64,000 nt of DNA from an uncultured delta proteobacterium (GTDB lineage Bacteria; Desulfobacterota; Desulfobaccia; Desulfobaccales; 0-14-0-80-60-11), in the NCBI GenBank assembly GCA_963709285.1, contig CAVPVR010000002.1, forward strand, positions 65,491 to 129,490, given 5' to 3'. Under the pieces are notes generated by a model that was not told the DNA's origin, did not search any database, and saw only the letters and a program-made list of their open reading frames with translations. This document shows positions 26,172-40,878 of this stretch, in pieces (the first letter of the stretch is position 1; each line of letters opens with the position of its first letter). A program made the translations under genes and the position numbers.

Positions 26172-27440
26172 ATGACCAGGGAGTCCCTTGTCTGCCCCGG
26201 ATGCAGTTGCCTCTGCGACGACCTGGACGTGACCTTGGAAAATGGCCGGATTGTGGCGGTGGCCAACGTTTGCCTCTGGGGTGCAGGCAAGTTCCTATCT
26301 ACTAAAAAATTCCACACCAAGAGTCCCCGCAGTCGGTTGACGGCCTTCCAGGTTCGGCGCCGAGGGCGCTGGCAGGAGGTGCCGTACGAGGGGGCCCTGG
26401 AAGAAGCGGCGGCCCTTCTCACCAAGGCCCGGCGCCCACTCATTTTCGGTCTTACCAACTCAGGGGTTTGGGCCCAGGAGGCAGCCCTGAAGCTGACCCG
26501 GGGGCTCAAGGCCCGCCTGGAGCCGGGTGACCTGAGCTTCATGGCTCCCTTCTACCAAGCCGTCAAGGCTCATGGCCTCTTCTGGGCGCCCCTGGAGGTC
26601 ATCCGGGACGAAGCGGACACCGTGCTTTTCTGGGGGGCCAATCCCATCCACTCTACCCCCCGGCACCTGGTGCGCTACGCCGTCTTTGCCCGGGGCCGCT
26701 TCACTGAGCGAGGGGTAGAGGATCGGCGGGTGGCGGCGGTGGATATTTATCCCACCGAACTGGGCCACTTCTGCCGCCCCTTTATCCAGGTGCAGCCCGG
26801 CCAGGAGTTGGCTTTGGCGGAAGCGCTCATTGCCCGGCTCACCGGAAGGACGGCGGAAACTGCGGCCGTCTCCGGAGTCTCGGATCTGGCCGACTTCCTG
26901 GCCCAGACCGCCTACGGCGTGATGTTCCTGGGCCGGGGGGTGAGCTACGGGCCGCATCATGAGCTGGTTGAGCGTCTGGCGACGCTGGTGGCTTGGCTCA
27001 ACCGTGAGCGCCCTTTTGCTCTCTTACCCCTTCCCGGGGATTTCAACAGTGCCGGTCTCTACCACCTGCTCCTCCAGGAACTGGGAAGTCCGGGGGCCCC
27101 GGATTTCAGTACGGGAGGGGAGGTGGTTAGTCATCTTACCCCGGTGGATTTCCAGGAGGTTGATGCCATTCTGGTTGTCGGCGCCGACCTTGTGTGGTTT
27201 TTGCGAGATGAGCAAGTTCAGGATTTGAAACGCCGCCAGGTGCCATTAGTGGTGTTGAGCCCCTTTGCCAACCGTACCACGGCCCAGGCGGCGGCGCTTT
27301 TCCCGGTGGCCCTCGAGGGGGTGGAGGTGGATGAGGTAGCCTATCGGCTGGATGGGCTGCCGGTGCCGCTTAAAGCCCCTCTATCTTCACCCTGGCCCGC
27401 AGCCCACCGGATTTTAGCCGACCTGGCCCTGTTTTGTTAA
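26172..27440 (+). CDS. Formylmethanofuran dehydrogenase subunit B-like protein (FwdB/FhcB family)
   Basis: N-terminal CPGCSCLCDDLDV cluster motif, and VLFWGANPIHSTPRHLVRYAVFARGRFTERG as conserved in Fwd/FmdB. Confidence 0.7.
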   Translation: MTRESLVCPGCSCLCDDLDVTLENGRIVAVANVCLWGAGKFLSTKKFHTKSPRSRLTAFQVRRRGRWQEVPYEGALEEAAALLTKARRPLIFGLTNSGVWAQEAALKLTRGLKARLEPGDLSFMAPFYQAVKAHGLFWAPLEVIRDEADTVLFWGANPIHSTPRHLVRYAVFARGRFTERGVEDRRVAAVDIYPTELGHFCRPFIQVQPGQELALAEALIARLTGRTAETAAVSGVSDLADFLAQTAYGVMFLGRGVSYGPHHELVERLATLVAWLNRERPFALLPLPGDFNSAGLYHLLLQELGSPGAPDFSTGGEVVSHLTPVDFQEVDAILVVGADLVWFLRDEQVQDLKRRQVPLVVLSPFANRTTAQAAALFPVALEGVEVDEVAYRLDGLPVPLKAPLSSPWPAAHRILADLALFC

Positions 27441-27470
27441 CGACTCAAGATCATGAAATAACTTTTCATA

Positions 27471-28010
27471 ATGGAGAAAAACATGACCCAAGCCGCGGCG
27501 AAAAACCCCGTGGTAATTTTGGAAACCAGCCTGGGGTCCATCAAGCTTGAACTTTTTCCCGAAAAGGCTCCGGTGACGGTGGCCAATTTCCTCGCCTACG
27601 TGCGGGAAAGCTTTTATGATGGGCTTATCTTCCACCGGATTATCTCCAACGCTATGGTCCAGGCAGGAGGCTTTAGGCCGGGTCTGGCTTACCAGGAGCC
27701 CACTCACCCTACCATTGTCAACGAAGCTCAAAACGGCCTTGCCAACGAGCGGGGTACCATTGCCATGGCCCGGGCCTTTCCCATCGATAGCGCCGCGGCC
27801 CAGTTTTTCATCAACGTGGTGGACAACTCCGACCTCGACCACCGGGGTTCGGAGCCCCAGGATTTTGGCTACGCGGTCTTTGGCCGGGTCATTGAGGGCA
27901 TGGAGGTGGTGGACAAAATGACCTGGATACCCACCGGGCCGGTGGGAGAGCATCGGAATGTGCCCCAGGAGAACATCATCATCAACAAGACCAGCGTAGT
28001 GGAGGATTGA
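27471..28010 (+). CDS. Peptidyl-prolyl cis-trans isomerase, cyclophilin type
   Basis: LFPEKAPVTVANFL...FHRII...QAGGF...GTIAMAR...SAAAQFFIN motifs. Confidence 0.9.
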   Translation: MEKNMTQAAAKNPVVILETSLGSIKLELFPEKAPVTVANFLAYVRESFYDGLIFHRIISNAMVQAGGFRPGLAYQEPTHPTIVNEAQNGLANERGTIAMARAFPIDSAAAQFFINVVDNSDLDHRGSEPQDFGYAVFGRVIEGMEVVDKMTWIPTGPVGEHRNVPQENIIINKTSVVED

Positions 28011-28027
28011 AGCCCCCGGAGCCGTTC

Positions 28028-29404
28028 ATGCGTCTGAAGATCACCGGAGGCCGGGTGTTCGACCCAGCCCAGGGCTGGCAGGGAGAGGTCCGGGACCTGT
28101 ACCTCGACGGGGACCGGATGGTCTCCCGCCTCCCCAAGGTGGATGAAGTTATCGATGCCCGGGATCAGGCGGTGGTGCCGGGAGGCATTGACCTGAGAGG
28201 ACAGGTGGCCACCTATGGCCTGAATTTCCTGCGCCTCTGGGGGATGTGCCCCAGTCCCGGAAAGCTGGGGGAGACCTACGCCACTCTGGGCTACACTCAT
28301 GTCCACGAACCCTATGTGACCCTGGCCACGGCCGCTTATGTGCATCGTGAGCTCGCGGCCCTGCCGGTGGTGGATGTGTCCGCCTCTTTGGTGGTCAACC
28401 TTCGGGACCTGGACCTCTGGCTCAGGGACACCGACAAACTGCCCGAGTTGGCGGAAACCCTTCAGTTTTTCCAGGAAAAGACTCGTACCTTGAACTTCAG
28501 GGTGGTGGAGCCCTGGGTGCGGCATCGCCAGGAGTTTTATGCGCACCGCACCCTTCCCTTGGAGGAGACCCTGGAAGTTTTGGCCCGGCTGGCTGGGGAA
28601 CTGCAAACGACCCTGGTGGTGGAGGCCTCTCCCGAGGTGCTCCGGGCTGCGCTGCCGGAGCCCCGGGCCTTCCACTTGGCCGCTCTGGGGGCGGCCCTGA
28701 GTGCAGACGACCTGGTCGAGGCCGCCCTGGCCCACCTGGAGCAAGGGACCAGCGCCGATCTAGGCCTCATGTGGCCCCAGAAAATTGCGGGAGGAAATGG
28801 CGTTCCCGTCCAGGTAGACCTGGGCTTGTGCGAGCCCTTGTCCCTGGCGCCAACCGCAGAGAAGGGTCAAGCCCGGCGGGCTCTCTCCCTGGCACTGGCC
28901 GTAGAGGGAACCACAGCGGCCTTTTCCGGGGCCGGCGCGGTGTGGGCGCCGATCAAGCACTATCCTGATTTTTTTGCCTGGTTAGGGGACCGAGAAGCCC
29001 GACAGGAGTTCTGGGGTGACGAGATAAGCCCGCGCCGGTATTCTTGGTTCGATTGGGTCCGGGCCACCCGCACCCTCCCGGCCCGGCTTCTGGGCCTGGC
29101 CGACCGGGGCCACTTGGGTCCCGGGGCCCGGGCTGATGTGGCCTTTTTTGACCTGCCTCCGGAGGGTGCTGAAGACCGCTGGCCGGAACAGGTCAGGCGT
29201 TGCCGGACACTCATCAAGGCCGGAACGGTGGTGGTGGACAATTTCAGTCTGGTCCGCCCCGAAGTCCCCAAGGCCGCCTGTTTCCGGCGCACCGGGGCGG
29301 AGTCCACGGCCCTGGTGGACGAGCTTTGCCAGTACCGGAGTTTTCGACCGGAAAACCTGTGGATGTCCGGGGACCTGGAAGGCGCCACCTGGGTGGAGGT
29401 TTAA
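28028..29404 (+). CDS. Formylmethanofuran dehydrogenase subunit A-like amidohydrolase-fold protein (FwdA/FhcA family)
   Basis: The MRLKITGGRVFDP start, VVPGGID strand, and C-terminal GLADRGHLGPGARADVAFFDL are as in Fwd/FmdA. The start was set at the ATG at 28028. Confidence 0.6.
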   Translation: MRLKITGGRVFDPAQGWQGEVRDLYLDGDRMVSRLPKVDEVIDARDQAVVPGGIDLRGQVATYGLNFLRLWGMCPSPGKLGETYATLGYTHVHEPYVTLATAAYVHRELAALPVVDVSASLVVNLRDLDLWLRDTDKLPELAETLQFFQEKTRTLNFRVVEPWVRHRQEFYAHRTLPLEETLEVLARLAGELQTTLVVEASPEVLRAALPEPRAFHLAALGAALSADDLVEAALAHLEQGTSADLGLMWPQKIAGGNGVPVQVDLGLCEPLSLAPTAEKGQARRALSLALAVEGTTAAFSGAGAVWAPIKHYPDFFAWLGDREARQEFWGDEISPRRYSWFDWVRATRTLPARLLGLADRGHLGPGARADVAFFDLPPEGAEDRWPEQVRRCRTLIKAGTVVVDNFSLVRPEVPKAACFRRTGAESTALVDELCQYRSFRPENLWMSGDLEGATWVEV

Positions 29405-29465
29405 GGTGGAGTTCTGCATTGATTCAAATTTCCCATGCATTTTCGATCGGTTTACCAAGACAATA

Positions 29466-29549
29466 CCCCCTTTTTTAAAGGGGGGCCAGGGGGGATTATA
29501 AACAATGTCATAGTAATCCCCCTAAATCCCCCTTTAGAAAAGGGGGACT
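29466..29549. repeat. About 85-bp nested-palindrome element, family A, copy 1
   Basis: CCCCCTTTTTTAAAGGGGGG...GGGGGGATTAT...ATAATCCCCCTAAATCCCCCTTTAGAAAAGGGGGAC. Near-identical copies lie at 45058-45140 and, inverted, at 44735-44820. Confidence 0.8.
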
Positions 29550-29608
29550 TAAAACAGCTTTATGGAATCCCGGTTGTATTTTAACAACGAATAATAAACC
29601 CTAATGTA

Positions 29609-30061
29609 ATGACTACCGACAAGGAACTGCTGGAATTTTTGCCCGGCACGGATTGCGGGGAGTGCGGCCTGACCTGTGCCGAATTTGCGGCTCGGTTGCT
29701 GGTCCGGGAGTCGGCTCCGGAGGACTGCCCGGTCCTGCACACTCCGGATTACGCCGGCTACATCGAGGCCCTGCATGAGCTCTTGGGAGCGGTGGCGGAA
29801 GCAGCCCCGGCGATGCACATCGATCCGGAAAAGTGCAACGGCTGCGGCATTTGCGTGGCCATGTGCGAGCATCACCTGGGAAACTGCACTGAGGCCCGTC
29901 TGGGCCGGGGTCCTCGTCCCCATGAGCAGGTGGTCTTCCACGTGGTGAACGGCACTGTGGTGGTGGTGCGCCAGGAACTCTGCGTCCGGATGCTGCAGGC
30001 TGCGGAGAAGTGCAGCAAGTGCGCCGAGCACTGCCCGACGGAGGCCATAACCTTTGGGTAG
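29609..30061 (+). CDS. Fe-S protein: RnfB-type N-terminal 4Fe-4S domain plus a ferredoxin-like domain
   Basis: LPGTDCGECGLTCAEFA (a C-x2-C-x4-C pattern as in the RnfB/CdhD Fe-S domain), then CNGCGICVAMCE and CSKCAEHCP cluster motifs. Confidence 0.7.
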   Translation: MTTDKELLEFLPGTDCGECGLTCAEFAARLLVRESAPEDCPVLHTPDYAGYIEALHELLGAVAEAAPAMHIDPEKCNGCGICVAMCEHHLGNCTEARLGRGPRPHEQVVFHVVNGTVVVVRQELCVRMLQAAEKCSKCAEHCPTEAITFG

Positions 30062-30150
30062 AGGGGATGAAGTAAACAAATTTCGCACCTCTTAAGTAGG
30101 CTTAGTGAGAAGGAATTACTGGGTAAGAAGCAGATTTTTGGAAGAAATGT

Positions 30151-30231
30151 TGTAGGGCACGTCTTACGCGCCATAAATTGGAACTAGCTGAGAATATAAC
30201 AGGAATATTGGTGCGTAAGACGCACCCTACA
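30151..30231. repeat. Inverted repeat TGTAGGGyrCGTCTTACGCrCC (arms about 22 nt, 37-nt spacer)
   Basis: The left arm at 30151-30172 and the right arm at 30210-30231 match at 19 of 22 positions as reverse complements. It lies upstream of the hdrC-like gene. Confidence 0.55.
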
Positions 30232-30328
30232 TTTACTGGTCCCTCGTTAGGAAAGGGGGAAAATGTTCTATCCTGTTGTGGTTCTTTACAAAAGAGGCTC
30301 AAACGAGGACTTTTATTATAGTTAATTA

Positions 30329-30826
30329 ATGCCCATGGACGAAACCCTGCATATCCACGAACTCGACCCCCTGTTCAAGGAAGAGGTGGCCCGGGAGCCG
30401 GGTTGCCAGCACCTGCTGCGCTGCTTCGCCTGCGGGGTGTGCACCGCCACCTGCCCGGTGGCCGAGATCGAGCCGGAGTTCAGCCCCAGCCACATCATCC
30501 GCCAGATTCTTTACGGTATGAAAGACCAACTGCTCGCGTCGCCGGCCCTCTGGTATTGTGCCCGTTGTGCGCAATGCTCCTTTTCCTGCCCCCAGGACGT
30601 GCGCTTTCTGGACATCATCCAGGGGCTGAGAAACCTGGCGGTGCGGGAAGGGGCCATCACCGCGGCACGGGCCGCCCGTCTGGCCCAGGGGGAGAAACTC
30701 ATTCAGGAACTCCGGCGCTCCCTTTTGGCGGCCCTCCTGGCGGCCCCGGAGGATGGTCTTAACCTCAAGGCGGAACTTACCCGGGCCCTGGCCGACGTTG
30801 ATATGCCGCCTCCGGAGGAGGATTAG
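30329..30826 (+). CDS. HdrC-like 2x[4Fe-4S] protein
   Basis: CFACGVCTATCP and CARCAQCSFSCP motifs with HdrC-type spacing. Confidence 0.7.
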   Translation: MPMDETLHIHELDPLFKEEVAREPGCQHLLRCFACGVCTATCPVAEIEPEFSPSHIIRQILYGMKDQLLASPALWYCARCAQCSFSCPQDVRFLDIIQGLRNLAVREGAITAARAARLAQGEKLIQELRRSLLAALLAAPEDGLNLKAELTRALADVDMPPPEED

Positions 30827-30832
30827 CCCTAA

Positions 30833-33800
30833 ATGGCGTTGGTCCGGCCCCTGTCGCAGGTTGTCAGTTCCCGGGTGATGGTGGTGGGCGGGGGCATCGC
30901 GGGTCTTACCGCGGCCCTGGACCTGGCCGCAGTGGGTCTTCCCGTCACCCTGGTGGAGGAAGGTCCTTCCCTGGGGGGCCTGATGGCCCAGTTGGACAAG
31001 ACCTTTCCCACCAACGACTGCGCCATGTGCATCCTGGCGCCCCGGCTGCTGGAAGCGGCCCGGCATCCCCTGATTGAGATCCATACTCTGACCCGGGTAA
31101 TGGGGATGGAGGGACAGCCCGGGGATTTTAGGATACACTTGGCCCGCCGGCCGCGGTACGTGGACCCGGCCAAATGCACGGGTTGCGGGGAATGCGTCCG
31201 GGTTTGTCCCAAACGCATTCCCGACCCCTACAACCTGGGACTCAAGCCGGACCAAGGCCATCCACGTGCCCTTCCCTCAGGCGGTGCCGCAGGCGGCCTA
31301 TATCGACCCGGAGGCCTGCCGCCACCTGCAGGGGCGCGAGGAAACCTCCTGTGTTCAGGTGTGTTCGGCGGGAGCCATCAACTTTGCAGACCAGCCGGAA
31401 ATCTTTGTGAAGGAGGCCGGGGCCGTTATTCTGGCGCCTGGGGCCCGGCCCGCGCCGGTGCAGGACTTTCCCGGGGCCTGGCACCCGGATGTAGTCACCA
31501 GCCTGGAATTCGAGCGGCTGCTGAGTGCCACCGGTCCTCATGAAGGCAAGCTGCTGCGGCCCTCAGACCAGCAGGAGCCCCAGTCCATAGCCTATATCCA
31601 GTGTGTGGGGTCCAGGGACCAGGAGGCGGGCGCGGCTTATTGTTCCAGTCTTTGTTGCTTGTCCAGCCTGAAAGAGGCCCTGGTGGCCCAGGAGCTTACC
31701 CAGGACCGGGCCGCGACCACCATTTTTTACCTGGACCTGAGGGCCCAGGGCAAAGAGCAGGAGCGCTATCTGGAGACGGCTCAGGCCCGGGGGGTCGAGC
31801 TGGTGAGGTCCCGGGTCACTGCGGTCCACCCGCATCTGAAGGGTGGCCTGGCGGTGCGCTACACCGACCCCCGAGGCAGGCCCCAGGAGAGGATTTTTGA
31901 CTTGGCGGTCCTGGCGGTGGGACTCAGGCCGGCGGCGCACCTGCGGGATTGGGCCGGGCGGCTCGGCATAAGTCTCAACGAACACGGATTTATCAAGGAA
32001 GGGCAGCCTTTTTCTCCGGTTACGGGGCGGGAGGGCGTTTATCTTTGCGGCACGGCCCAGGAGCCCATGGACATTACCCTGTCCGTGGCCAACGCCAGCT
32101 CGGCGGCTCAAGCTGCAGCCCAACTCCTGGCCGTGAGCCCCCGGCCTGCCCTGGCCAGGGTGTCACGGGAAAAGCCGCTGAGCACCGATGGGCGCCCCCC
32201 GAAAATCGGGATTTTTCTCTGTCATTGCGGCACCAACATCGCGCGCACCGTCGATCCGGAGGCCTTGAGCAAGATGGTCCGGGAAATCCCCGGGGTGGCC
32301 CACGTGGAGGATTTCCTCTTCAGTTGTTCGGCGGACGCCACCCAAAAGATGGCGGCCATCATAGAGGAGCAGGGTTTGAACCGGGTGGTGGTGGCCGCGT
32401 GCAGCCCCCGCACCCACGAGGCCGTCTTTCGGGAGGTGCTGGCTGCAGCCGGGCTAAATCCGGGGTATCTCGCCTTCGCCAATATCCGGGAGCAGTGCGC
32501 CTGGGTGCACCAGGATGACCCGGACGCGGCCCTGGCCAAAGCTGCAGACCTGGTGGCCATGGCGGGGCGCGGGGCCCTGGAACTGGCCCCCATCACTCCC
32601 GCCACGTATCCGGTGATGCCCCGGGCCCTCGTTTTAGGAGGCGGGGTGGCCGGTATGAGCGCCGCCCTTTCTCTGGCCGACCAGGGCTTTCACACCTATC
32701 TGGTGGAACGCACTCCCCGACTGGGGGGGCTGGCCCGCAACCTGCGCTTCACCCTGGAAGGGTTAAATCCCCTGGAGTTAATCCAGGCCCTCGAAAATGC
32801 AATCTCCTGGCACCCCAACGTGGAAGTGCTCACCCAAACCGAACTGGTGTCCCTGGAGGGTACTGTGGGGCGCTTCCGGTCCCGGGTCCGCCAGTTGATA
32901 CAGGAAGAATGGGAGGAGAGGCGCCTGGAGCATGGGGTGGTGCTGGTGGCCACGGGTGGCCGGGAAATGCAGCCCGAGGGGAGCTATCTTTACGGTGAGG
33001 ACCCCCGAGTGCTCACCCAACTGGAACTGGAGGAGAAGATCAGCACCGGCGGCAAAGATCTGGACCGGGCACGGCGGGTAATCATGATTCAATGCGTGGG
33101 TTCCCGTTCTCCCGAGCGCCCTTACTGCAGCCGCTTGTGCTGCACCGAAGCCCTGAAAAACGCCCTTCTCCTCAAAAAGCGTTATCCCCTGGTGGAGATC
33201 GTTGTCCTCTATCGCGACATCCGGGCCTTTGGCTTCCGGGAATTGGCCTACCAGGAGGCCAAGGAGCGGGGCGTGGTCTTTATTCCCTACGACCCGGACC
33301 GGCCCCCGGAGGTGAGCGCGTCTCGGCGGCGGCCGTTGACAGTGCGGGTCTGGGACGAACTTTTAGAAGAGACCGTGACCTTGCCGGCGGATTTTCTAGT
33401 CCTGAGCGCCGGCATCGAACCGGCGGCGGGGAGCGGCAAGGCGGCCCACCTGCTCAAGGTGCCGCTGGCCACGGGCGGCTTTTTCCTCGAGGCCCATCAG
33501 AAACTCAAACCGGTGGAAACCATGGTGGATGGGGTCTTTATCTGTGGCCTGGCCCACTACCCCAAGAGCCTGGGAGAGGCGGTGGCCCAGGCTCAGGCGG
33601 CGGCCATCCGGGCCGCGGCCCTCCTCTTTCAGGAGGAAATCCAACAGAGTGAAATCTCTGCTATCATACTGAGCGAGAACTGCCAATTATGTCTTGCTTG
33701 TGTGAAAAGTTGTCCTTTTGCAGCCATTGTTGTGGGTGAGGGGGGAATACCCCAAATTATGGGAGAACTCTGCCGGGGCTGCGGGGTCTGCGCTGCGGAG

Positions 33801-33929
33801 TGCCCCGCCGGCGTCATTCGGATGAGCCGTTTTACCGACGCCGAGTTGACCGCCCAGATCATGGCTGCCCTGGAGCGTCCCCAAGGAGAGGAACATGGTG
33901 AGAGAGAGCTATTGCGGTCTGTGCGATGA
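30833..33929 (+). CDS. hdrA: Double-length HdrA-like flavoprotein (two FAD-binding modules plus ferredoxin domains), interrupted by a 1-nt frameshift near 31247
   Basis: GxGxxG appears twice (VVGGGIAGLTAAL, VLGGGVAGMSAAL), along with CVGSRD motifs and C-terminal CxxCxxCxxxCP clusters. Track ORFs 30833-31543 and 31266-33929 join as NLGLK(R)TKAIHVPFPQAVPQ if one C of CCGG is dropped. Compare the paralog sequence NLGLKSRKCIRIIFAQAVP. Confidence 0.75.
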
Positions 33930-34323
33930 CTGCCAGTTGGGCCATCCTGAATTCCTCAAGGCTGTGGCCCTGTTACAGGAATATCTGGACCGCTTTCGGG
34001 CCAACTGGTGGGTCCACTGTTTTCCGGAGAAGGAGGGCTTTAACTTCCCGGAATTCCGGCGAGGGTTGGACTGGTTTTTAGCGCACACGGAGTGCCCGGG
34101 CTGCAAAGGGGGTAAGGGATTGGAACTCTGCCCCATCCGGACTTGCGCCGTGGCCCGCGGGCTGGCGCACTGCTCCCTCTGTCCGGATTTGGTTCCTTGT
34201 GACAAGTTTGACCACCTGCTTGAGCAGTTCCCTGACGTGAAGATCAGCCTGCGCCGCCGTCAGTTGAAGATCAAGGCCATACATTTTCACCAGCAGTTAG
34301 CCGCCATAAAAAAGGAAGGCTGA
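33895..34323 (+). CDS. DUF3795-like Cys-rich protein
   Basis: N-terminal YCGLCDDCQLG and later CPGCKGG...CPIRTC...CSLCPDLVPC motifs. Confidence 0.5.
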   Translation: MVRESYCGLCDDCQLGHPEFLKAVALLQEYLDRFRANWWVHCFPEKEGFNFPEFRRGLDWFLAHTECPGCKGGKGLELCPIRTCAVARGLAHCSLCPDLVPCDKFDHLLEQFPDVKISLRRRQLKIKAIHFHQQLAAIKKEG

Positions 34324-34356
34324 GGGGCCTGACCCGGTTTTGCCGAGTTATTTCCC

Positions 34357-35211
34357 ATGAAAACGTTGGTCCACAAGCGTGAAACCAGAAGCGCCATTGA
34401 ATTGACCCTCCGGATGTACCAGGAGCTGGTAGAGCTGCGCCTGGACAAAACGGCCTGCCTCAAGTGCGAGGTCTGCTCCCTGGTCTGCCCTCGGGGGGCG
34501 GTGGCCGTCACGCCTGCTGACGAGGGCCTGGATATCACCATTGATCCCCGCGTCTGCGTGCTCTGCGAAATTTGCGCCCACTTTTGCCCTACAGGAGCGG
34601 TGAGCTTGAGGCTCAACGGCGTCCCCAAGACTATTTTATTCGACCATCTGGGTCTGGCGGCCTTTTTGGACAAGATCAGGATGGACAAGGAAAGGTGCAC
34701 CGAGCCCTGCCCCCAGGATGAAAAAGGGCAGGAGCACTGGTGCCGGCAGCAGCTGAAGCTGGTGGGAGGCCTGCTCACGGAGTGCCCCAAACACTGCCAC
34801 AAGTGCCTGACTGTGTGCCCCCGTCAGGCCATTGTCCTGGACCCGGAGGGCCTGCACACCATGCCCGAGCCCGACCTGTGCCTGCGCTGCACCCAATGTC
34901 TCTCGGTGTGTGAACAGGAAGCCCTGGCGGTCAACCCCCAGTTCACTGGCGACCTTGACATTGACGACAGCAAGTGCCCGCCGGACTGTATGCTGTGCAT
35001 CGAAGCCTGTCCCGTTAAGGCCATCGTGCGGGAAGGGGAGCGGGTCTACCGGAAGTTAGAAACTTGCAGCTACTGTGGGGTGTGCTACAACATTTGTGAT
35101 TACGAAGCCGTTAGCCTAACCCGGCGGCAGGTGGTGGCCCTCAAGGGGGAATTTTCCCAAGCCTGGGAAGAGGCGGTGAACCGGCTCCTCTCCCGGGAAA
35201 TGGTTCGATAA
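34357..35211 (+). CDS. Polyferredoxin (six 4Fe-4S-type motifs; MvhB/FwdF-like)
   Basis: CLKCEVCSLVCP, CVLCEICAHFCP, CHKCLTVCP, CLRCTQCLSVC, CMLCIEACP, CSYCGVCYNIC. Confidence 0.8.
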   Translation: MKTLVHKRETRSAIELTLRMYQELVELRLDKTACLKCEVCSLVCPRGAVAVTPADEGLDITIDPRVCVLCEICAHFCPTGAVSLRLNGVPKTILFDHLGLAAFLDKIRMDKERCTEPCPQDEKGQEHWCRQQLKLVGGLLTECPKHCHKCLTVCPRQAIVLDPEGLHTMPEPDLCLRCTQCLSVCEQEALAVNPQFTGDLDIDDSKCPPDCMLCIEACPVKAIVREGERVYRKLETCSYCGVCYNICDYEAVSLTRRQVVALKGEFSQAWEEAVNRLLSREMVR

Positions 35212-35235
35212 GTTGCGTTAAGCAAAAAGGCGTTT

Positions 35236-37599
35236 GTGGAACCTGAACTTCGCATCGGCTTATATATCTGTCACTGCGGCCTCAATATCGCCGGGGTCAT
35301 CAGTCCGGAGGCCCTGTCGGTTCAGGGGCAGGGGCTCCCTGAGGTGGCGGTCAGTCGCCATCATTTGTACACCTGCTCCGAAGCCGGCCAAGCCGAGATT
35401 CTGAAAGACATCAAGCACTTTAAGCTTGATCGGGTGGTTATTGCCGCCTGTTCACCCAAGCTTCATGAAGTCACCTTCCGCCGGCTGCTGTCGGAAGCGG
35501 GGCTGAATCCCTACCTGGTGGAAATGGTGAACATCCGGGAGCACTGCGCCTGGGTGCACGCCGGGGAGCCGGAGGCGGCCCAGGAAAAGGCGTTGGAGCT
35601 CATCCGCATGGGGCTAGCCAAGGCGTGTCTGGCGGTCCCCTTGCAAGACCGCCAGGTGCCCATGACCAGGCATGCCCTGGTTATTGGCGGAGGCCCAGCG
35701 GGACTGCGAGCCGCCCTCGATATTGCCCATGCCGGCTACCCCGTAACCCTGGTGGAACGGGAGCCCATCCTAGGGGGCATGGCCAACCGGCTGCATCGCA
35801 CCTTTCCCCGGGGGGAAAGCGCCCTGGCCCTGATCAATCCCCTCATGGCTGCGGTGGCCCTGCATCCCGGCATCCAGGTGCTCACCCAGAGCGAGGTCAC
35901 CGAGGTGAGCGGGCATTTGGGGGAGTTTGCCGTCACGGTGCGGGAGACCCTGCCCCTGGTGGGGGAGGCCTGCGACCGCTGTGGGCACTGTGCTGAGGTC
36001 TGTCCGGTGGTGGTTCCCGATACCGTGGCCGCAGGTCTTGGCACCCGGACTGCCATCTATCTGCCGGCCCCCCATGCTTTTCCCGGCCGCTATGTGGTGG
36101 ATCTGGAGCACTGCGACCGCTGCGGCGAGTGTATAGCTGCCTGTCCCCAGGAGGCCATCAGCCTGGAGGAAGGGGAACGAGAGCATCACCTCACCGTGGG
36201 GAGCATCGTGGTGGCCACGGGCTTCACTCTCTTTGATACGGCGGGGAGCCGCTATGAGAACTGGGCTGACCATCCGGGAGTTGTCACCACGGTGGCCCTG
36301 GAGCGCCTTCTGGCGGGGGCAGGACCCACCCAGGGAAAGGTAAGCCTTGCCGATATTCCAGAAGAGGTGCGGGATGTGGCTTTTCTGCTGTGCGTGGGCT
36401 CCCGGGAGGAGGAGGGCAACCGTTACTGCTCCCGGGTGTGCTGCCCCACGGCCTTGAAGCAGGCCCTGGAGCTGAAAAAACGCCTCCCGGAGGCCCGCAT
36501 TCGTATCTATTACCGGGACATCCGCACCAACAAAAAAGACTGGGAGGCCCTTTACACCGAGGCCCGGGAAGCGGGGGTGCTGTTTTTGCGGGGGCGGGTG
36601 GAGGAAGTAAAAGCCGCCCAAGATGGGGGCCTGCTCATTCGTGCCTTTAACGAGACCTTTCAGGTTCCCACCGAAGACCGGGTGGACCTGGCGGTCCTGG
36701 CCGTGGGCATGGTCCCCGGGAACGGCGCCGCTCTCCGGGAGGTGTTGAAGCTGCCGGTGGGACCGGACGGCTTTTTCATGGAGGCCCACCCCAAGCTCAA
36801 GCCCCTGGAGACGGTGCTGGACGGCATTTTTCTGGCCGGGGCCTGTCAGGGTCCCAAGGACCTGGCCGAATCCTTCACCCAAGGAAGCGGCGCGGCCGCC
36901 AAGGTTCTGGCCCTCTTTGCCCACGAGACCATCACCCTGGACGGCCTGGTGGCCCAGGTGGACCCGGAGGTCTGTGTGGGCTGCGGGGAATGCGCGGCAG
37001 CCTGTCCGTTTCAGGCCATGGAGATGGTGGGGGAGGAAGAAAAGCAGCAGGCCCAGGTAGTTACTGCAGCCTGCAAGGGCTGTGGGGTCTGCGCCGGCGC
37101 CTGTCCTACGGGGGCGGTCATCCCCGCGGGGTTTACGGACGAGATGATCCTGGCTCAGATCGACGAGGCCTTGGCGGAGGCTCCGGAACAGAAAATTTTG
37201 GCCTTTTGCTGCAACTGGTGCTCTTATGCCGGGGCGGACTTCGCCGGGGTGTCGCGGCTGGCCTATCCCCCCCAAGTGCGCATTATCCGAACCATGTGCT
37301 CTGGCAGGATTCACCCCAAGTTTATCCTCCATGCGTTTGAGCGGGGCGCCGGCCAGGTTTTGATCTCCGGTTGCCACCCTCCGGGGGAATGCCATTATAT
37401 TTCTGGAAATCTTAGGGCTCAGGAGCGGGTGGAAAAGCTCCGGCCCAAACTTGCCAAAAAAGGCATCGACCCTTCCCGCCTGCGGCTGGCGTGGGTTTCA
37501 GCCACGGAAGGGAGGGCATTTCAACGGGTCATTGAAGAAATGGCCGCGGCCCTGGAGCCTGAAGAGACGGTCAAACAAGCGAGCGGTCAGGGGAAATGA
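35236..37599 (+). CDS. hdrA: HdrA-like flavoprotein fused to a C-terminal MvhD-like domain
   Basis: LYICHCGLNIAG N-terminal cluster, VIGGGPAGLRAAL FAD motif, CVGSRE, ferredoxin motifs, and a C-terminal ILAFCCNWCSYAGAD...ISGCHPPGECHY (MvhD signature). GTG start. Confidence 0.85.
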   Translation: MEPELRIGLYICHCGLNIAGVISPEALSVQGQGLPEVAVSRHHLYTCSEAGQAEILKDIKHFKLDRVVIAACSPKLHEVTFRRLLSEAGLNPYLVEMVNIREHCAWVHAGEPEAAQEKALELIRMGLAKACLAVPLQDRQVPMTRHALVIGGGPAGLRAALDIAHAGYPVTLVEREPILGGMANRLHRTFPRGESALALINPLMAAVALHPGIQVLTQSEVTEVSGHLGEFAVTVRETLPLVGEACDRCGHCAEVCPVVVPDTVAAGLGTRTAIYLPAPHAFPGRYVVDLEHCDRCGECIAACPQEAISLEEGEREHHLTVGSIVVATGFTLFDTAGSRYENWADHPGVVTTVALERLLAGAGPTQGKVSLADIPEEVRDVAFLLCVGSREEEGNRYCSRVCCPTALKQALELKKRLPEARIRIYYRDIRTNKKDWEALYTEAREAGVLFLRGRVEEVKAAQDGGLLIRAFNETFQVPTEDRVDLAVLAVGMVPGNGAALREVLKLPVGPDGFFMEAHPKLKPLETVLDGIFLAGACQGPKDLAESFTQGSGAAAKVLALFAHETITLDGLVAQVDPEVCVGCGECAAACPFQAMEMVGEEEKQQAQVVTAACKGCGVCAGACPTGAVIPAGFTDEMILAQIDEALAEAPEQKILAFCCNWCSYAGADFAGVSRLAYPPQVRIIRTMCSGRIHPKFILHAFERGAGQVLISGCHPPGECHYISGNLRAQERVEKLRPKLAKKGIDPSRLRLAWVSATEGRAFQRVIEEMAAALEPEETVKQASGQGK

Positions 37600-39218
37600 T
37601 AACCAAGACCCAAGTTCTCTTGTGCGCCTGCCCGGACCTCAAGGTGGAGGTCCAGAACTTGGCCCAACGCCTCTCCCAGGCCGGGCTGAGGGTCGAAGTA
37701 TCCCCGCCTCTCTGCACCCCCGCGGGTTTGGAGGAATGGGGGCCACGCCTGACGGCCGAACCCCGGGAGTGGCTGGTGGCCGCGTGCGGACCGGCACAGC
37801 ATCACGGCCTTTTTCAACGTCTGGCCGGGGATGAACCTCTGGCCATGGTGGATCTCCTAGCCGCAGACGATCTGGAAAGCGCTGTGGCAGCCGTCCTCCT
37901 GGCCCAAAAGGAGGAAATTCGCCTGGTTTCCGCGGGCGCACCCCACAGCCGGGAGGTGCTGGTGGTGGGGGGCGGGGTGGGGGGCTGTCAGGCCGCCCTG
38001 GACCTGGCCAATGCCGGTTTCAAGGTACATCTGGTGGAATCCTCCCTCTCCATCGGTGGCACCATGGCCCAGTTGGACAAGACCTTTCCCACGCTGGACT
38101 GCTCCATCTGCATCCTGGGACCCAAGCTGGTGGAAGCCGCGGCCCACCCCTTGATTGAGCTCCTCACCTTTGCGGAAATCACCGGCATTTCCGGCCAGGC
38201 CGGGCGATTTACGGTGGATGTGACCCTGAAGCCCCGCTATGTGGACATGAGCCGGTGTGTGGGCTGCGGCAGTTGCGTCCAGGTCTGCCCGGTCATTGTT
38301 CCCAGTCGCTGGAACCTGGGGCTCAAGTCCCGCAAGTGCATCCGCATCATTTTTGCGCAGGCGGTGCCCCTTATGGCCACTATCGAAAAAGAATACTGCA
38401 TCGACTGCCAGATGTGCCTTGAGGCCTGTGAACACGGGGCCATTCACCCTTTGTCCCGCCCGGAGGAACGGCGCCTCGAGGTGGGGGCGGTGGTTCTGGC
38501 TACCGGGGCCCGGCCCTTTGACCCGGCCATTCAGAGTGAATACAGTTATGGCCGTCTCCCCGGGGTCCTCACCAACCTGGAGTTCGAGCGCCTGGTGTGC
38601 GCCACCGGTCCTACTCAAGGACATCTCCTGACCCCCGCCGGGCAACCGGTGAAGCGTCTGGCCTTCATCCAGTGTGTGGGCTCCCGGGACCGGCGCTTCC
38701 TGCCCTACTGCTCGGGCTACTGCTGCACTGCGGCCATCAAGCAGGCCATGCTGACCCTGGAGCATGAACCCGACGCCGAGGTCACCATCTTTTTCAACGA
38801 CATCCGCACGTCGGGGAAGGGCTTCGAGGAACTCTATTTGCGGGCCCAAGCCGCGGGAGTGCGCTTTACTAAAGGTCTGCCGGGGCGTATCGAGGCGGGG
38901 GAGGCTGGCAGCCTCATAATCATTTATGAAGATCAGCAAGGCGGCCAGCGGGGCCGTCTGCCCGTGGACCTGGCGGTCCTGTCCGTAGGCCTGACCGCAC
39001 CCCGGGAGGGACTCCCCTTCACAGAGATCGGGCCGGTGCGGGACAACCTGGGATTTTATGACAGCCGGCACCCGATCCTTCATCCCCTGGAGTCCACGGT
39101 GCCGGGAGTCTTTCTGGCCGGCACCGCCCAGGGGCCCCGGGATATTTCTGAAACGGTGTGCACCGGCAGCGGGGTTGCGGCCCGGATCATCAACCTGCTC
39201 AATTCTCTGCCCCAGTAG
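37596..39218 (+). CDS. hdrA: HdrA-like flavoprotein (third paralog, with a distinct N-terminal extension)
   Basis: VVGGGVGGCQAAL, DKTFPTLDCSICIL, CVGCGSCVQVCP and IQCVGSRD motifs. Its start overlaps the upstream stop (ATGA). Confidence 0.8.
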   Translation: MITKTQVLLCACPDLKVEVQNLAQRLSQAGLRVEVSPPLCTPAGLEEWGPRLTAEPREWLVAACGPAQHHGLFQRLAGDEPLAMVDLLAADDLESAVAAVLLAQKEEIRLVSAGAPHSREVLVVGGGVGGCQAALDLANAGFKVHLVESSLSIGGTMAQLDKTFPTLDCSICILGPKLVEAAAHPLIELLTFAEITGISGQAGRFTVDVTLKPRYVDMSRCVGCGSCVQVCPVIVPSRWNLGLKSRKCIRIIFAQAVPLMATIEKEYCIDCQMCLEACEHGAIHPLSRPEERRLEVGAVVLATGARPFDPAIQSEYSYGRLPGVLTNLEFERLVCATGPTQGHLLTPAGQPVKRLAFIQCVGSRDRRFLPYCSGYCCTAAIKQAMLTLEHEPDAEVTIFFNDIRTSGKGFEELYLRAQAAGVRFTKGLPGRIEAGEAGSLIIIYEDQQGGQRGRLPVDLAVLSVGLTAPREGLPFTEIGPVRDNLGFYDSRHPILHPLESTVPGVFLAGTAQGPRDISETVCTGSGVAARIINLLNSLPQ

Positions 39219-39254: not shown

Positions 39255-39283
39255 ACTTTGAGGACTTTGACAAAAGACTTTGG
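39255..39283 (+). promoter_or_regulatory. Three direct ACTTTG(A/G) repeats upstream of the Ubl-like gene
   Basis: AACTTTGAGGACTTTGACAAAAGACTTTGG read directly. The half-site is the same as in the 25907 palindrome. Function unknown. Confidence 0.25.
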
Positions 39284-39297
39284 AAAGGCGAACTAGC

Positions 39298-39672
39298 ATG
39301 TCGGATATTCAGATAAAACCGGAAGAACAACCGAAAAAATTACAAAAACCCTTGCCCCTGGTCCTGGAGATCATTCCCGGGCAGGCCGGGGAGGGGCTCG
39401 TGGTGGTAATGGAGCCAGGGAGCTACGAGGGCAGCACCCTGAGGGAGCTCTGTGATCAGGCTTTGAGCCGCCCCGACTTCAGCATCGAGGAGCGCCAGAT
39501 TTTAGAGGACATCCAGCGGCAGCTTCAGGGTGGCAAGCTCCTTTGCCAGGGCCGGGACCTCGACGGACCCGCCCAGGTCTTCGGAACCGTTGAGGAGACG
39601 GAAGCCGGGGAGGCTTATCTTTATGTGCCTGTCCGGGCCATCAAGCCTCAGGAGGGGGGCCTCTTCCCTTAA
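39298..39672 (+). CDS. Ubiquitin-like (beta-grasp) protein candidate with C-terminal GG followed by LFP
   Basis: 124 aa from the ATG at 39298, with a GGAAAGG RBS 8 nt upstream. It shows a beta/alpha alternation compatible with a beta-grasp fold, ends ...YLYVPVRAIKPQEGG-LFP, and sits in an operon with E2-like, JAB and E1 genes. Confidence 0.5.
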   Translation: MSDIQIKPEEQPKKLQKPLPLVLEIIPGQAGEGLVVVMEPGSYEGSTLRELCDQALSRPDFSIEERQILEDIQRQLQGGKLLCQGRDLDGPAQVFGTVEETEAGEAYLYVPVRAIKPQEGGLFP

Positions 39673-39675
39673 GGA

Positions 39676-40878
39676 ATGGGAACGGGAGCGGGGATGTGGA
39701 GGTGTTTTGAAGCCGACCTGGAAATCCTGGTGCACCGGGGCCACCTGTACCTTCCCCTGGTTTTAGATCCAGAGATCAACCAGGAGATTCAGGCCCCGAT
39801 TTCCCCAAGTTATTCGTGGGATCAATCGCCCGGCGGGCTCAGCCGTTCACCGGTGCCTACGGTCCTGGCTGTCCTGGATAGATGGTTCGTCCAGGCGGTG
39901 AGCGCTTCCTCCCTGGTTGACAACTACGCCCAGCTTTTTCCCCAAGACCACGAAGACCGCCGGCGGACTCTCCGTGAACAATACTCTCTGACCGCGGACC
40001 TCTTTGGGGTGGCCCTGGACCCCCACCTGGTCGCCATCGTTTTTCACATTTTACCCCATTTTCTCAGGCGGGATGGATTTCAGAGACGGCGGCGCTTACA
40101 GGAGGGGGAGGTCCTGGATTTCATCCGGGAGCGAGTCCAGGTGCCCCACTACTTCGACCAACAAGCGCGGAGTTTCCTGGATGTCAATCCTCTGAAGGAG
40201 GCCCTCCGGCGCCTGGAAACCGTTCATCTTGAGCCCAAACCACCTCCAGAGGGATTGGTGCCGGCAGCCGATCTGGGGGCCTGGTGGGAGGAGGTCCTAA
40301 CAGCCCAACTTCTGGCCGAGGAGCGCAACCGCCTCTTCCAGGAGATCGAGGAACGGGAGCACTGGGCCACGGCTCAGGAAAGTCGTCTGGCGGTTCTGCT
40401 CTATTTAGCTCAAAAAGGGTCCCTGGAACTGGACGGCTTCGGGTTCTCCCGGATGAGGCGGGGCCAGGATTACCGGGTTTACAAGCGCACCGGGCCCTAT
40501 GCCCTCCAGGACTTTTATGGCCATTTGTACCTCTTCCCGGATTGCCGGGTGGCGGTCACCACTTTGGGGCGCCTGCGGCCCGTGGTGGTGGATCACTATA
40601 AGCACCCGTTCCTGAGAAGGTACGCTTCTGGCCAGGAAATCTGCATAGGTCCCGAAAGCAGTAATCTTTCTTTTTCGGCAAAAAACGCCATCCAGGTCCT
40701 GGAGGAAGGGATCAACGCGCTCTTGTACAGCTACGACGGCCGGCACCGCGCCGGCTACCACAGACTGTTTGTGCTGCCGGGGATGATGCGACTGGTGGAC
40801 TTCGAAGACATTCGCATCCCGAAGGACCACCCCCTCATCGTCTCAGGGAAAGTGGAAGTGAAGAACCGGGCCACCTGA
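39676..40878 (+). CDS. E2/UBC-like protein candidate with a large N-terminal extension
   Basis: The C-terminal region YLFPDCRVAVTTLGRLRPVVVDHYKHPFLRRYASGQEICIGPES...AIQVLEEGINALLY mirrors the UBC layout (FP..., HPN-like HPF, G-x-x-I-C-[LI], following helix). The candidate catalytic Cys323 codon is at 40642-40644. Confidence 0.45.
   Translation: MGTGAGMWRCFEADLEILVHRGHLYLPLVLDPEINQEIQAPISPSYSWDQSPGGLSRSPVPTVLAVLDRWFVQAVSASSLVDNYAQLFPQDHEDRRRTLREQYSLTADLFGVALDPHLVAIVFHILPHFLRRDGFQRRRRLQEGEVLDFIRERVQVPHYFDQQARSFLDVNPLKEALRRLETVHLEPKPPPEGLVPAADLGAWWEEVLTAQLLAEERNRLFQEIEEREHWATAQESRLAVLLYLAQKGSLELDGFGFSRMRRGQDYRVYKRTGPYALQDFYGHLYLFPDCRVAVTTLGRLRPVVVDHYKHPFLRRYASGQEICIGPESSNLSFSAKNAIQVLEEGINALLYSYDGRHRAGYHRLFVLPGMMRLVDFEDIRIPKDHPLIVSGKVEVKNRAT

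Follow-up and report, generated by a model that had tools for sequence, protein, structure and literature searches.

The question raised by this locus is what a bacterium would do with relatives of the methanogen formylmethanofuran dehydrogenase (Fwd) subunits that are encoded side by side with a repeated heterodisulfide reductase subunit A (HdrA). The locus lies in a stretch of 64,000 nucleotides from an uncultured delta proteobacterium of the sulfate-reducer type, in the order Desulfobaccales (GenBank assembly GCA_963709285.1, contig CAVPVR010000002.1, positions 65,491 to 129,490), which is referred to as the window throughout. Open reading frame (ORF) listing combined with Pfam and NCBIfam scans revealed ten genes in one orientation at positions 26172–39218 (+), which encode in order a FwdB-like protein, a cyclophilin, a FwdA-like protein, a soluble iron-sulfur (FeS) protein, an HdrC-like protein, a double-length HdrA, a DUF3795 protein, a polyferredoxin, an HdrA-MvhD fusion and an HdrA-like flavoprotein of 540 residues (HdrA540). 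An earlier note on the window had listed the same ten co-oriented genes, and this inventory was confirmed down to the coordinates. Altogether, this strongly conserved, operon-like cluster is pointing to an undescribed electron-transfer complex. Our preferred reading, to which we give an even chance of being right, is a soluble multi-subunit complex that is built on HdrA, probably bifurcates electrons and contains Fwd-derived subunits that are no longer catalytic.

The first gene (26172–27440, +) encodes a FwdB-like protein of 422 residues, which matches TIGR03129 with an E-value of 4e-83 and a score of 279.2 bits, below the NCBIfam equivalog cut-off of 327.8. Its alignment with five solved FwdB/FmdB chains (E-values of 1e-40 to 3e-55) runs from one end to the other, and its AlphaFold2 model, with a predicted local distance difference test score (pLDDT) of 75 and a predicted template modeling score (pTM) of 0.78, superposes on FwdB with template modeling (TM) scores of 0.86–0.88, compared to 0.66 for FhcB. 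The model thus fits FwdB far better than FhcB, and the same holds against formate dehydrogenase H (FDH-H) and NuoG of respiratory complex I. The four N-terminal cysteines Cys8, Cys11, Cys15 and Cys34 align with the [4Fe-4S] motif of FwdB and are invariant in 15 family members. The catalytic cysteine/selenocysteine-histidine pair is gone, however, as the FwdB motif 'SV(U/C)HGP' is replaced by 'SFMAP', which places Phe-Met at that position. In addition, the FwdB motif 'RGHYNV', whose arginine we take to correspond to the catalytic arginine of formate dehydrogenases, is aligned to 'PGDFNS', so that the aligned arginine is replaced by proline. Sequence alignment showed that the FwdB-like proteins of two distant loci (L050 and L052) also lack both the Cys/Sec-His pair and the aligned arginine. 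Moreover, the loop that replaces the pair differs between bacterial lineages, reading 'DLSFMAPF', 'SEHLDSF' or 'AALLSSY'.

The FwdA-like protein is encoded by an ORF at 28007–29404, the start of which is probably Met8 at 28028, since the relatives are about 457 residues long; the resulting gene (28028–29404, +) encodes an amidohydrolase-fold protein of 458 residues. Its TIGR03121 match (7e-34, 117 bits) likewise falls below the NCBIfam equivalog cut-off, which is 392.75. Profile-profile comparison by hhalign of the Desulfobaccales family with canonical FwdA gave a full-length match with a probability of 100% and an E-value of 2e-47. The AlphaFold2 model is of moderate confidence (pLDDT 66, pTM 0.73); its nearest structural neighbors are FmdA, FwdA and FhcA, with TM scores of 0.69–0.76 and E-values of about 1e-21, and generic amidohydrolases trail them by about seven orders of magnitude. 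The A subunit of formylmethanofuran dehydrogenase possesses a binuclear metal site composed of four histidines, one aspartate and one carboxylysine, all perfectly conserved (PMC11656701). According to the hhalign alignment, at least five of these six ligands are lost in the Desulfobaccales family: His62 is replaced by Arg and His64 by Gln in the HxH motif, Lys185 by Arg, His236/His238 by Glu/Ser, His274, one of the two histidines in the 'HxxHxQ' motif, by Ala, and the aspartate by Gly. The only histidine kept is His223. A MAFFT alignment bridged by intermediate sequences is consistent with this loss. The family has motifs of its own, namely GYTHVHEP and LPVVDxSASL. The suggestion of the earlier note that the Fwd-like proteins act as scaffolds rather than enzymes therefore fits the sequence in that the catalytic residues are absent; the check that it had called for, namely which cofactor-binding residues are retained, showed that the [4Fe-4S] cysteines of the FwdB-like protein are kept, whereas the metal ligands of the FwdA-like protein are mostly lost.

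An exhaustive profile search with the FwdA-like family, followed by alignment of the hits, revealed a graded series of short FwdA-like proteins of 450–520 residues. In the MAFFT alignment, the distant bacterial members P0247 (from L050) and P0248 (from a group of about 40% identity that includes L052 and L057) keep the HxH, Lys, His and Asp ligands, and archaeal relatives do likewise. As distant bacterial and archaeal relatives retain the ligands, the loss is specific to the Desulfobaccales-type proteins and a few other degenerate lineages. The short archaeal amidohydrolases, of 466–498 residues, are encoded at 10001–11470 of L051, 10001–11401 of L053 and 9853–11349 of L058; their hosts are ANME-1/Methanophagales (ANME, anaerobic methanotrophic archaea) and one other archaeal contig, and one of them is annotated as 'Allantoinase'. 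The archaeal protein that was aligned, P0252 of L058, keeps the HxH and Asp ligands. The ANME-1/Methanophagales proteins were considered as a source of archaeal gene context and set aside, as their genes lie beside pheT and are accompanied by neither an Hdr nor a FwdB-like gene; across the archaeal loci, such stand-alone genes neighbor pheT or other housekeeping genes. A neighbor of 427 residues in L051 was rejected as a FwdB-like protein at 18% identity, and L058 was rejected as a linked system because its 498-residue FwdA-like protein stands alone.

The HdrA part of the cluster was resolved by motif mapping into four HdrA domains of two complementary kinds. All four have a GxGxxG motif and the cluster motif 'CVGSR...C..CC'. 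The first kind comprises the N-terminal half of the double HdrA (30833–33929, +; 1031 residues once one base is removed) and HdrA540 (37596–39218, +; 540 residues), which share the motif 'TFPT(N/L)DC(A/S)(M/I)CIL' holding the equivalent of Cys197. The N-terminal half of the double HdrA has a flavin adenine dinucleotide (FAD) domain, the Cys197-type motif 'NDCAMCIL' and an inserted ferredoxin domain, and lacks the N-terminal FeS domain as well as the C-terminal ferredoxin domain. Similarly, HdrA540 combines the Cys197-type motif 'TLDCSICIL' with an inserted ferredoxin domain and is devoid of a C-terminal one. By contrast, modules of the second kind have no cysteine at the Cys197 position. Among them, the HdrA-MvhD fusion (35236–37599, +; 787 residues; 2e-177 against 5odc_A and 4e-39 against the MvhD chain 5odc_D) consists of an N-terminal FeS domain, an FAD domain, ferredoxin domains at the inserted and C-terminal positions and an MvhD [2Fe-2S] domain, without a Cys197-type motif ('TFPRGESALALI'). 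It matches PF02662 at 1e-47 and covers positions 1–769 of the 777 of the HdrA2 model NF040770 with 933 bits, under the exception-level cut-off of 1100. The tblastn similarities show the same grouping, in that the N-terminal half of the double HdrA is 43–44% identical to HdrA540, and the N-terminal domain of its C-terminal half is about 43% identical to HdrA-MvhD.

Complementarity of tandem or fused HdrA modules in ANME archaea and Moorella has been read as an obligate asymmetric heterodimer that replaces the symmetric HdrA dimer (PMC9012536). The four domains of the cluster display the same pattern, in which the Cys197 ligand and the FeS/ferredoxin domains are divided between the partners of a heterodimeric or fused HdrA. 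The cluster is thus predicted to encode two HdrA pseudo-heterodimers, one fused (the double HdrA) and one split (HdrA540 plus HdrA-MvhD). As the halves are complementary and one of them supplies the Cys197-type ligand, each pair would form one asymmetric unit with one complete electron path. The earlier note had counted three HdrA modules; that HdrA is repeated holds, and the count becomes four domains arranged as two complementary pseudo-heterodimers.

Three further proteins would carry electrons to or from these units. The FeS protein (29609–30061, +; 150 residues; PF04060 at 4e-10 plus Fer4) is of the RnfB type and consists of an N-terminal PF04060 [4Fe-4S] domain followed by a 2x[4Fe-4S]-type ferredoxin domain; it has no membrane anchor, and its alignment to RnfB begins at RnfB residue 42. 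The HdrC-like 2x[4Fe-4S] protein (30329–30826, +; 165 residues) has two CX2CX2CX3CP motifs and matches TIGR03290 at 6e-22 with 78 bits (cut-off 160), as well as positions 5–112 of the 360 of QmoC, that is, its N-terminal region, at 4e-18 with 66 bits (cut-off 300). The polyferredoxin (34357–35211, +; 284 residues) contains 27 cysteines and six Cx2-3Cx2Cx3C motifs, and its best named match is FwdF (NF042909, 1.5e-26, 93 bits against a cut-off of 375). In addition, a cysteine-rich DUF3795 protein (33895–34323, +; 142 residues, 11 cysteines) matches PF12675 at 3e-10, and no solved homologue of it was found.

Several partners expected from the methanogen systems are missing. No 'CCG' tripeptide as in HdrB occurs in ORFs of at least 80 residues in the six frames of the whole 64-kb window, so that no protein of the HdrB/HdrD type is encoded there, and Pfam scans of the cluster gave no PF02754 match. 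FwdC and FwdD have no Pfam or NCBIfam match in any cluster gene or in the downstream ORFs, and Pfam scans of the cluster detected neither a hydrogenase or formate dehydrogenase nor an FhcC or Ftr/FhcD-like gene. These results bear out the statement of the earlier note that genes for HdrB, FwdC/D and a hydrogenase are absent. No apr genes occur among the scanned neighbors of the cluster, and no genes for methanofuran or tetrahydromethanopterin (H4MPT) among the window genes scanned.

Taken together, the lost residues and the missing partners leave little room for a genuine bacterial formylmethanofuran dehydrogenase, or for an Fhc-type C1 enzyme that acts on formyl groups bound to (methylo)furan and is coupled to Hdr in the methanogen manner. 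The Joint Genome Institute (JGI) names the proteins 'formylmethanofuran dehydrogenase subunit A/B', and their closest solved relatives are indeed FwdA/B and FhcA. However, both proteins score under the NCBIfam equivalog cut-offs, the FwdB-like protein is devoid of Cys/Sec-His and the aligned arginine, and at least five of the six metal ligands are lost from the FwdA-like protein; moreover, the cluster has no FwdC, FwdD or Ftr/FhcD gene, and the scanned window genes include none for methanofuran or H4MPT. We regard such an enzyme as highly improbable.

To what extent the ten genes belong together was assessed by scanning one genome per species, which yielded 45 loci, 44 of which were scored by tblastn with the proteins of the window; genes were counted only where enough sequence is present. 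The remaining locus (L049) had been considered as a divergent paralogous version at 38% identity and was discarded as a frameshift-ridden assembly. Wherever the sequence allows, the core genes are co-linear, with the order and orientation of these and the accessory genes unchanged, in all 44 species-level genomes, which are metagenome-assembled genomes (MAGs) of the Desulfobaccales type. The FwdB-like gene is present in all 39 judgeable loci, the FeS gene in 38 of 38, the HdrC-like gene in 34 of 34, the double HdrA in 31 of 31 and the DUF3795 gene in 28 of 28, compared to 22 of 27 for the polyferredoxin, 20 of 24 for HdrA-MvhD and at least 14 of 19 for HdrA540. In five loci (L011, L027, L035, L037 and L047), DUF3795 is the last gene of the cluster and is followed by unrelated genes, which lie on the minus strand in L011 and L035, the two inspected. 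Because these loci stop at DUF3795 while the core is always present, the block is modular: it consists of an invariant six-gene core (FwdB-like, FwdA-like, FeS, HdrC-like, double HdrA and DUF3795) and an accessory, usually adjacent three-gene module (polyferredoxin, HdrA-MvhD and HdrA540). The cyclophilin-type peptidyl-prolyl isomerase gene (27471–28010, +; 179 residues; PF00160 at 5e-40), which the earlier note had placed between the two Fwd-like genes, does lie there in the window; it proved to be an accessory insert, found at that place in only 11 of 41 loci. Close relatives of the FwdB-like and FwdA-like proteins number in the hundreds, and the named ones come from Desulfobaccales, Desulfobacca or generic 'Deltaproteobacteria' MAGs. 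The contig with the FwdB-like protein that UniRef attributes to Desulfobacca acetoxidans carries the core, the polyferredoxin and HdrA-MvhD, up to the end of the part of that contig that was analysed.

Junctions within the cluster are partly overlapping, as the start of HdrA540 overlaps the stop of HdrA-MvhD by 4 nt, and the first 35 nt of DUF3795 lie within the end of the double HdrA, an overlap that is identical in L003. The FeS gene, by contrast, is flanked by gaps of 205 bp before and 268 bp after it, both of which hold REP-like (repetitive extragenic palindromic) palindromes: the hairpin pair CCCCCTTT-N3-AAAGGGGG, a 33-nt inverted repeat at 29466–29546 in the first gap, which follows the FwdA-like gene, and the inverted repeat I2 at 30151–30231, with 23-nt arms of 87% complementarity, in the second, which precedes the HdrC-like gene. 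The gap between the FwdA-like and FeS genes is only 3 bp in the closest relative (L054), from which the REP-like insertions are absent, and 6–7 bp in L008 and L011. Both large gaps of the window are caused by the REP-like insertions. The hairpin CCCCCTTT-N3-AAAGGGGG is found six times in the window, where chance would predict 0 copies, and these hairpins, which resemble REP elements or miniature inverted-repeat transposable elements (MITEs), always occur in pairs about 60 bp apart (29466–29546, 44737–44815 and 45059–45137). A promoter and terminator scan gave the same counts as shuffled sequence and is therefore uninformative on transcription units; no plus-strand terminator signal above chance was found, and no riboswitch or other RNA regulator matched Rfam at the gathering threshold between 25 and 40 kb of the window.

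The 45 loci belong to a single lineage, so that their synteny could be due to shared ancestry alone, and we therefore searched for distant relatives. Three distant bacterial loci (L050, L052 and L057), whose Fwd-like proteins are 33–45% identical to those of the window, encode an HdrA-MvhD of about 780 residues, an HdrA of about 545 residues, an FeS protein, a FwdB-like and a FwdA-like protein, and two of the loci a polyferredoxin as well. Each of the three has a gene order of its own, and HdrC-like, double HdrA and DUF3795 genes are missing from all of them. These smaller versions of five to six genes occupy 3787–11871 of L050, 1809–11401 of L052 and 2893–11401 of L057, and some are labelled 'Pseudomonadota bacterium'. 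In L057, an unrelated gene of 280 residues is inserted between the FwdB-like and FwdA-like genes; it was considered as a polyferredoxin and rejected. That the Fwd-like/FeS trio and the HdrA pair recur together in three distant loci with shuffled order suggests that they are tied to each other independently of lineage and gene order, which is good evidence of a functional connection. The earlier note had named orthologs that are never co-localised as a finding that would refute its reading; this objection clearly fails, as synteny is seen in all 44 scored genomes wherever the sequence allows, and co-occurrence in the three distant loci. As a separate observation, a Thermodesulfobacteriota MAG (L045, 436–8503) carries a second, paralogous set directly upstream of the FwdB-like gene, in which a double-HdrA-like gene of 44% identity is accompanied by an MvhD-like gene and by further HdrA-like genes.

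The same data bear on the idea that two or three unrelated operons (Fwd-like, FeS and Hdr) are adjacent in one order merely by shared ancestry, and are uncoupled. Nearly all 45 loci do come from one lineage, the polyferredoxin/HdrA-MvhD/HdrA540 module is separable, and gaps exist, of 205 and 268 bp in the window and of about 100–250 bp, as they appear, in the relatives. However, the window gaps are due to REP-like insertions that close relatives lack, no plus-strand terminator signal rises above chance, and the association recurs in the three distant loci with shuffled order. Uncoupled operons are therefore improbable.

The Fwd-like genes are under purifying selection and are not decaying. By the Nei-Gojobori method, against four relatives of about 74–82% protein identity and one of about 95–96%, the ratio of nonsynonymous to synonymous substitution rates (dN/dS) is 0.14–0.18 for the FwdB-like gene, 0.20–0.26 for the FwdA-like gene and 0.10–0.21 for the HdrA, polyferredoxin and FeS genes, and 0.10–0.26 across all cluster genes. 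The double-length HdrA reported in the earlier note is present as well; in the window it is split into two frames (30833–31543 and 31266–33929) by a 1-nt insertion. DNA alignment located one extra base near 31247 (31240–31255), where the window reads 'CTCAAGCCGGACC' and the corresponding sequence is 'CTCAA-CCGGACC' in L054, whose Fwd-like proteins are about 95–96% identical to those of the window, and in L008 (about 74–81%). The orthologues are uninterrupted, at 1013–1031 residues. An assembly indel is the likeliest cause, because a second gene of the window, encoding a 7TM-HD (7TMR-HDED/HD) receptor, is split too, into ORFs at 18489–19442 and 19304–20983 (+) in different overlapping frames; a very recent inactivation is also conceivable.

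Loss of catalytic residues from both Fwd-like proteins, together with this frameshift, is what one would expect of a decaying relic, that is, of pseudogenes left from an archaeal Hdr-Fwd system acquired by horizontal transfer. Against such a relic, every gene has a dN/dS within 0.10–0.26, intact full-length orthologues occur across the 44 scored genomes wherever the sequence allows, and the extra base is a single one that is not shared by L054, with the other split gene (18489–20983) suggestive of assembly indels. We consider decay very unlikely.

A more serious alternative, which we still regard as unlikely, is that the FwdB-like/FwdA-like pair forms a new catalytic module rather than a scaffold. 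The polyferredoxin, the FeS protein and the [4Fe-4S] cluster of the FwdB-like protein would then deliver low-potential electrons that reduce or activate a substrate or cofactor, at a site either in the former pterin pocket or in a remodelled FwdA-like barrel lined by the invariant GYTHVHEP motif, Asp123/Ser125/Ser127, His223 and Asp251. Such a module would give a purpose to the Fe-S wire, which otherwise leads to a dead end at the retained cluster, and it agrees with the strongly conserved motifs that the Desulfobaccales FwdA-like family has of its own, with the low dN/dS of both genes, and with P0247 and P0248, which keep the complete binuclear-site ligands while lying beside HdrA genes. On the other hand, the loop that replaces Cys/Sec-His varies between bacterial lineages, there is no FwdD-type cap domain to complete a pterin site, and the Desulfobaccales have lost every class of binuclear-site ligand, so that the chemistry there looks dispensable. 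Moreover, cofactor-less domains resembling formate dehydrogenase (NuoG and FhcB) and amidohydrolase-fold pseudoenzymes such as collapsin response mediator proteins (CRMPs) provide precedents for a scaffold.

The reading that we prefer, an HdrA-based complex with non-catalytic Fwd-derived subunits, is favored by the synteny, the independent linkage in the three distant loci, the tight or overlapping junctions, the loss of catalytic residues with the [4Fe-4S] cysteines kept, the predicted folds, the purifying selection and the HdrA complementarity, and also by the fact that the best named relative of the polyferredoxin is FwdF. In such a complex, the proteins would assemble into one or two soluble assemblies, in which each HdrA pseudo-heterodimer would provide a bifurcating FAD, and flavin-based electron bifurcation or confurcation would be the most likely mode. 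In methanogens, MvhD docks hydrogenase or formate dehydrogenase, and the MvhD domain of the fusion would likewise be the docking site of a donor or acceptor redox enzyme encoded at an unlinked site. A low-potential branch, analogous to FmdF/FwdG, would run through the polyferredoxin and the RnfB-type FeS protein to the [4Fe-4S] cluster of the FwdB-like protein, whereas the HdrC-like protein would be another branch that lacks its usual HdrB terminus. Having lost the residues of the tungsten/molybdenum site as well as the binuclear site, the Fwd-like pair is most likely to act as a structural core, possibly with an electron relay or an off-pathway cluster. The pair would descend from a formylmethanofuran dehydrogenase and would have lost the ability to reduce CO2 and to form or hydrolyse formyl-methanofuran; the FwdB-like protein would keep only its [4Fe-4S] cluster, and the FwdA-like protein would be an amidohydrolase-fold pseudoenzyme. 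The analysis shows the gene content, the state of the domains and ligands, the conservation and the purifying selection; complex formation, flavin-based bifurcation and the roles of the branches are all inferred from homology.

A number of observations weigh against this reading. No substrate-specific catalytic subunit is encoded, while bifurcation needs three redox partners. The separable polyferredoxin/HdrA-MvhD/HdrA540 module implies that the whole 13 kb need not be one complex. The median apparent intergenic gaps in relatives are 80–250 bp, which as tblastn estimates overstate the gaps, and given these gaps the cluster may be transcribed in more than one piece. In the window, a frameshift interrupts the double HdrA. 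Moreover, the FwdB-like protein may still bind a pterin; the FwdA-like protein may have a residual or new role in Desulfobaccales, and the full set of metal ligands kept in its counterparts from the distant loci suggest that a catalytic role may be ancestral.

With these points in mind, we put forward a broader evolutionary proposal only tentatively, namely that the cluster is a descendant or sister of the CO2-fixing Hdr-Fwd supercomplex of archaea, present in Desulfobaccales and at least one other lineage, in which Fwd has been re-purposed either as the core of an HdrA-only machine or as a new low-potential active site, with the ligand-keeping versions of L050, L052 and L057 representing a still-catalytic ancestral state. 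The HdrA-only machine would bifurcate without a high-potential site of the HdrB type, and the new reductive site would be fed by the polyferredoxin and the [4Fe-4S] cluster of the FwdB-like protein.

If the complex exists as we prefer to read it, with four HdrA domains, no HdrB and Fwd-derived subunits, it would show how a bifurcating core can be wired to other partners, and how enzymes are made into scaffolds as large redox supercomplexes evolve. What is understood of HdrA-based flavin bifurcation comes almost entirely from the HdrABC of methanogens. Purification, cryo-electron microscopy and proteomics look feasible in Desulfobacca acetoxidans, because this species, to which UniRef attributes a cluster-linked FwdB-like protein, is in culture. 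There is also a consequence for environmental surveys, as metagenome studies of peat and sediment use the KEGG fwd/fmd and hdrA2 orthologues (K00200 and K03388) as methanogenesis markers (e.g. PMC13643928). Since JGI labels the proteins as formylmethanofuran dehydrogenase A/B and the fusion is HdrA2-like, counts of K00200 and K03388 may include Desulfobaccales genes incapable of the chemistry of methanogenesis, in peat and sediment rich in Desulfobaccales.

The scanned genes flanking the cluster are of the housekeeping type, and include BamA, an ABC ATPase with an FtsX-type permease, a class II aminoacyl-tRNA synthetase and PhoH, as well as a PHP-domain protein, QueA, PGI, a two-component system and FtsH. 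Within the 1.2-kb region upstream of the FwdB-like gene, a cysteine-rich ORF of about 75 residues lies at about 25285–25512 (+), and an ORF of 78 residues is called at the equivalent place in L054 and L055, the correspondence being by position alone. Downstream, a co-oriented block at 39280–46721 (+) lies outside the Hdr cluster and resembles the ubiquitin-like conjugation systems of bacteria. It encodes a protein of 130 residues ending in '...QEGGLFP', possibly a ubiquitin-like precursor, and further proteins of 400, 135 and 332 residues. A ClpX-like AAA+ ATPase in the block (267 bits, cut-off 359) is aligned from about position 39 of the ClpX model and apparently lacks the N-terminal domain; a protein of 265 residues shows a JAMM-like motif by eye and has no Pfam match. 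Finally, a protein of 500 residues contains a ThiF/E1 domain (PF00899 at 9e-39; PADLOC E1-E2 models at about 1e-17), and PADLOC gave no other matches in the 39280–46721 block. The downstream ORFs at 39280–43262 were considered as members of the Hdr cluster and rejected, as the distant versions lack them and they resemble a separate system of the ubiquitin-like type; none of the loci of close relatives extends beyond HdrA540.

How the cluster relates to known systems is best seen against the methanogen Hdr-Fmd/Fwd supercomplexes (Fdh-Hdr-Fmd of Methanospirillum hungatei, 7bkb; 9sfi; 9sw6), which share with it HdrA, MvhD, a FwdF-like polyferredoxin and homologues of FwdB and FwdA. Their FwdB/FmdB chains are the closest to the FwdB-like protein, at 3e-55 to 4e-40 and with TM scores of 0.86–0.88. 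Wiring from HdrA through a polyferredoxin to FmdB is the architecture described for the methanogen Hdr-Fmd supercomplexes (PDB 7bkb/9sfi/9sw6; PMC13580544, PMC13518236), and the implied path HdrA to polyferredoxin to FwdB [4Fe-4S] would be alike in the cluster. However, the cluster is bacterial and lacks HdrB, FwdC, FwdD, any hydrogenase and any formate dehydrogenase; its FwdB-like protein has lost Cys/Sec-His and the aligned arginine, and its FwdA-like protein the binuclear site. Compared to the HdrA homodimer of methanogens, it has two putative asymmetric HdrA pseudo-heterodimers, in addition to the FeS (PF04060) and DUF3795 subunits.

FhcABCD of Methylorubrum extorquens (6s6y) is similar in that FhcA is among the best structural matches of the FwdA-like protein, with TM scores of 0.70–0.73. 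The metal ligands are gone from the FwdA-like protein, while FhcA has been described as hydrolytically active. Fhc is reportedly a bacterial Fwd derivative whose B subunit is a non-redox relic; the FwdB-like protein is much nearer to archaeal FwdB (TM score 0.88) than to FhcB (0.66) and keeps the [4Fe-4S] motif. Moreover, FhcC and FhcD (Ftr) have no counterpart in the cluster, and Fhc is not linked to Hdr.

Among HdrA systems, the fusion protein of 787 residues matches the model of HdrA2, known from HdrA2B2C2 of Methanosarcina acetivorans, end to end, and bacterial HdrA2 homologues have been noted (PMC5296606). Different from HdrA2B2C2, the fusion scores under the cut-off of 1100, has no HdrB2 partner and is paired with a complementary HdrA. 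To our knowledge, F420 dependence is not expected in the Desulfobaccales lineage. The heterodimeric HdrA of the ANME/Moorella MetFV-HdrABC-MvhD systems (Chadwick et al. 2022, PMC9012536) shares the complementarity between Cys197 and the N-/C-terminal ferredoxin domains, in both fused and split forms. However, the domain order is reversed relative to the ANME/Moorella fusion, as the Cys197-bearing half comes first in the cluster, and the partners are putative Fwd-like pseudoenzymes instead of MetFV, FrhB or HdrBC. Qmo has two HdrA-like flavoproteins, one of them with an MvhD-like domain, plus an HdrC-like FeS module. Compared to QmoABC, the cluster lacks the membrane cytochrome-b (haem-b) part, its HdrC-like protein has only 165 residues, its HdrA proteins are closest to HdrA2 models, and no aprAB adjoins it.

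The cofactor-less formate dehydrogenase-like domain of NuoG/Nqo3 and the CRMP pseudoenzymes, both among the structural neighbors, are precedents for the two types of degeneration, although they are only distant fold relatives from unrelated complexes. Full-text literature searches, of incomplete coverage, returned no description of a bacterial Fwd-like/HdrA cluster, and only general HdrA papers were relevant. Altogether, the cluster falls outside Fwd/Fmd, Fhc, HdrABC and Qmo on defining features that were examined for each, and it shares the features of HdrA2-type fusions and of complementary HdrA.

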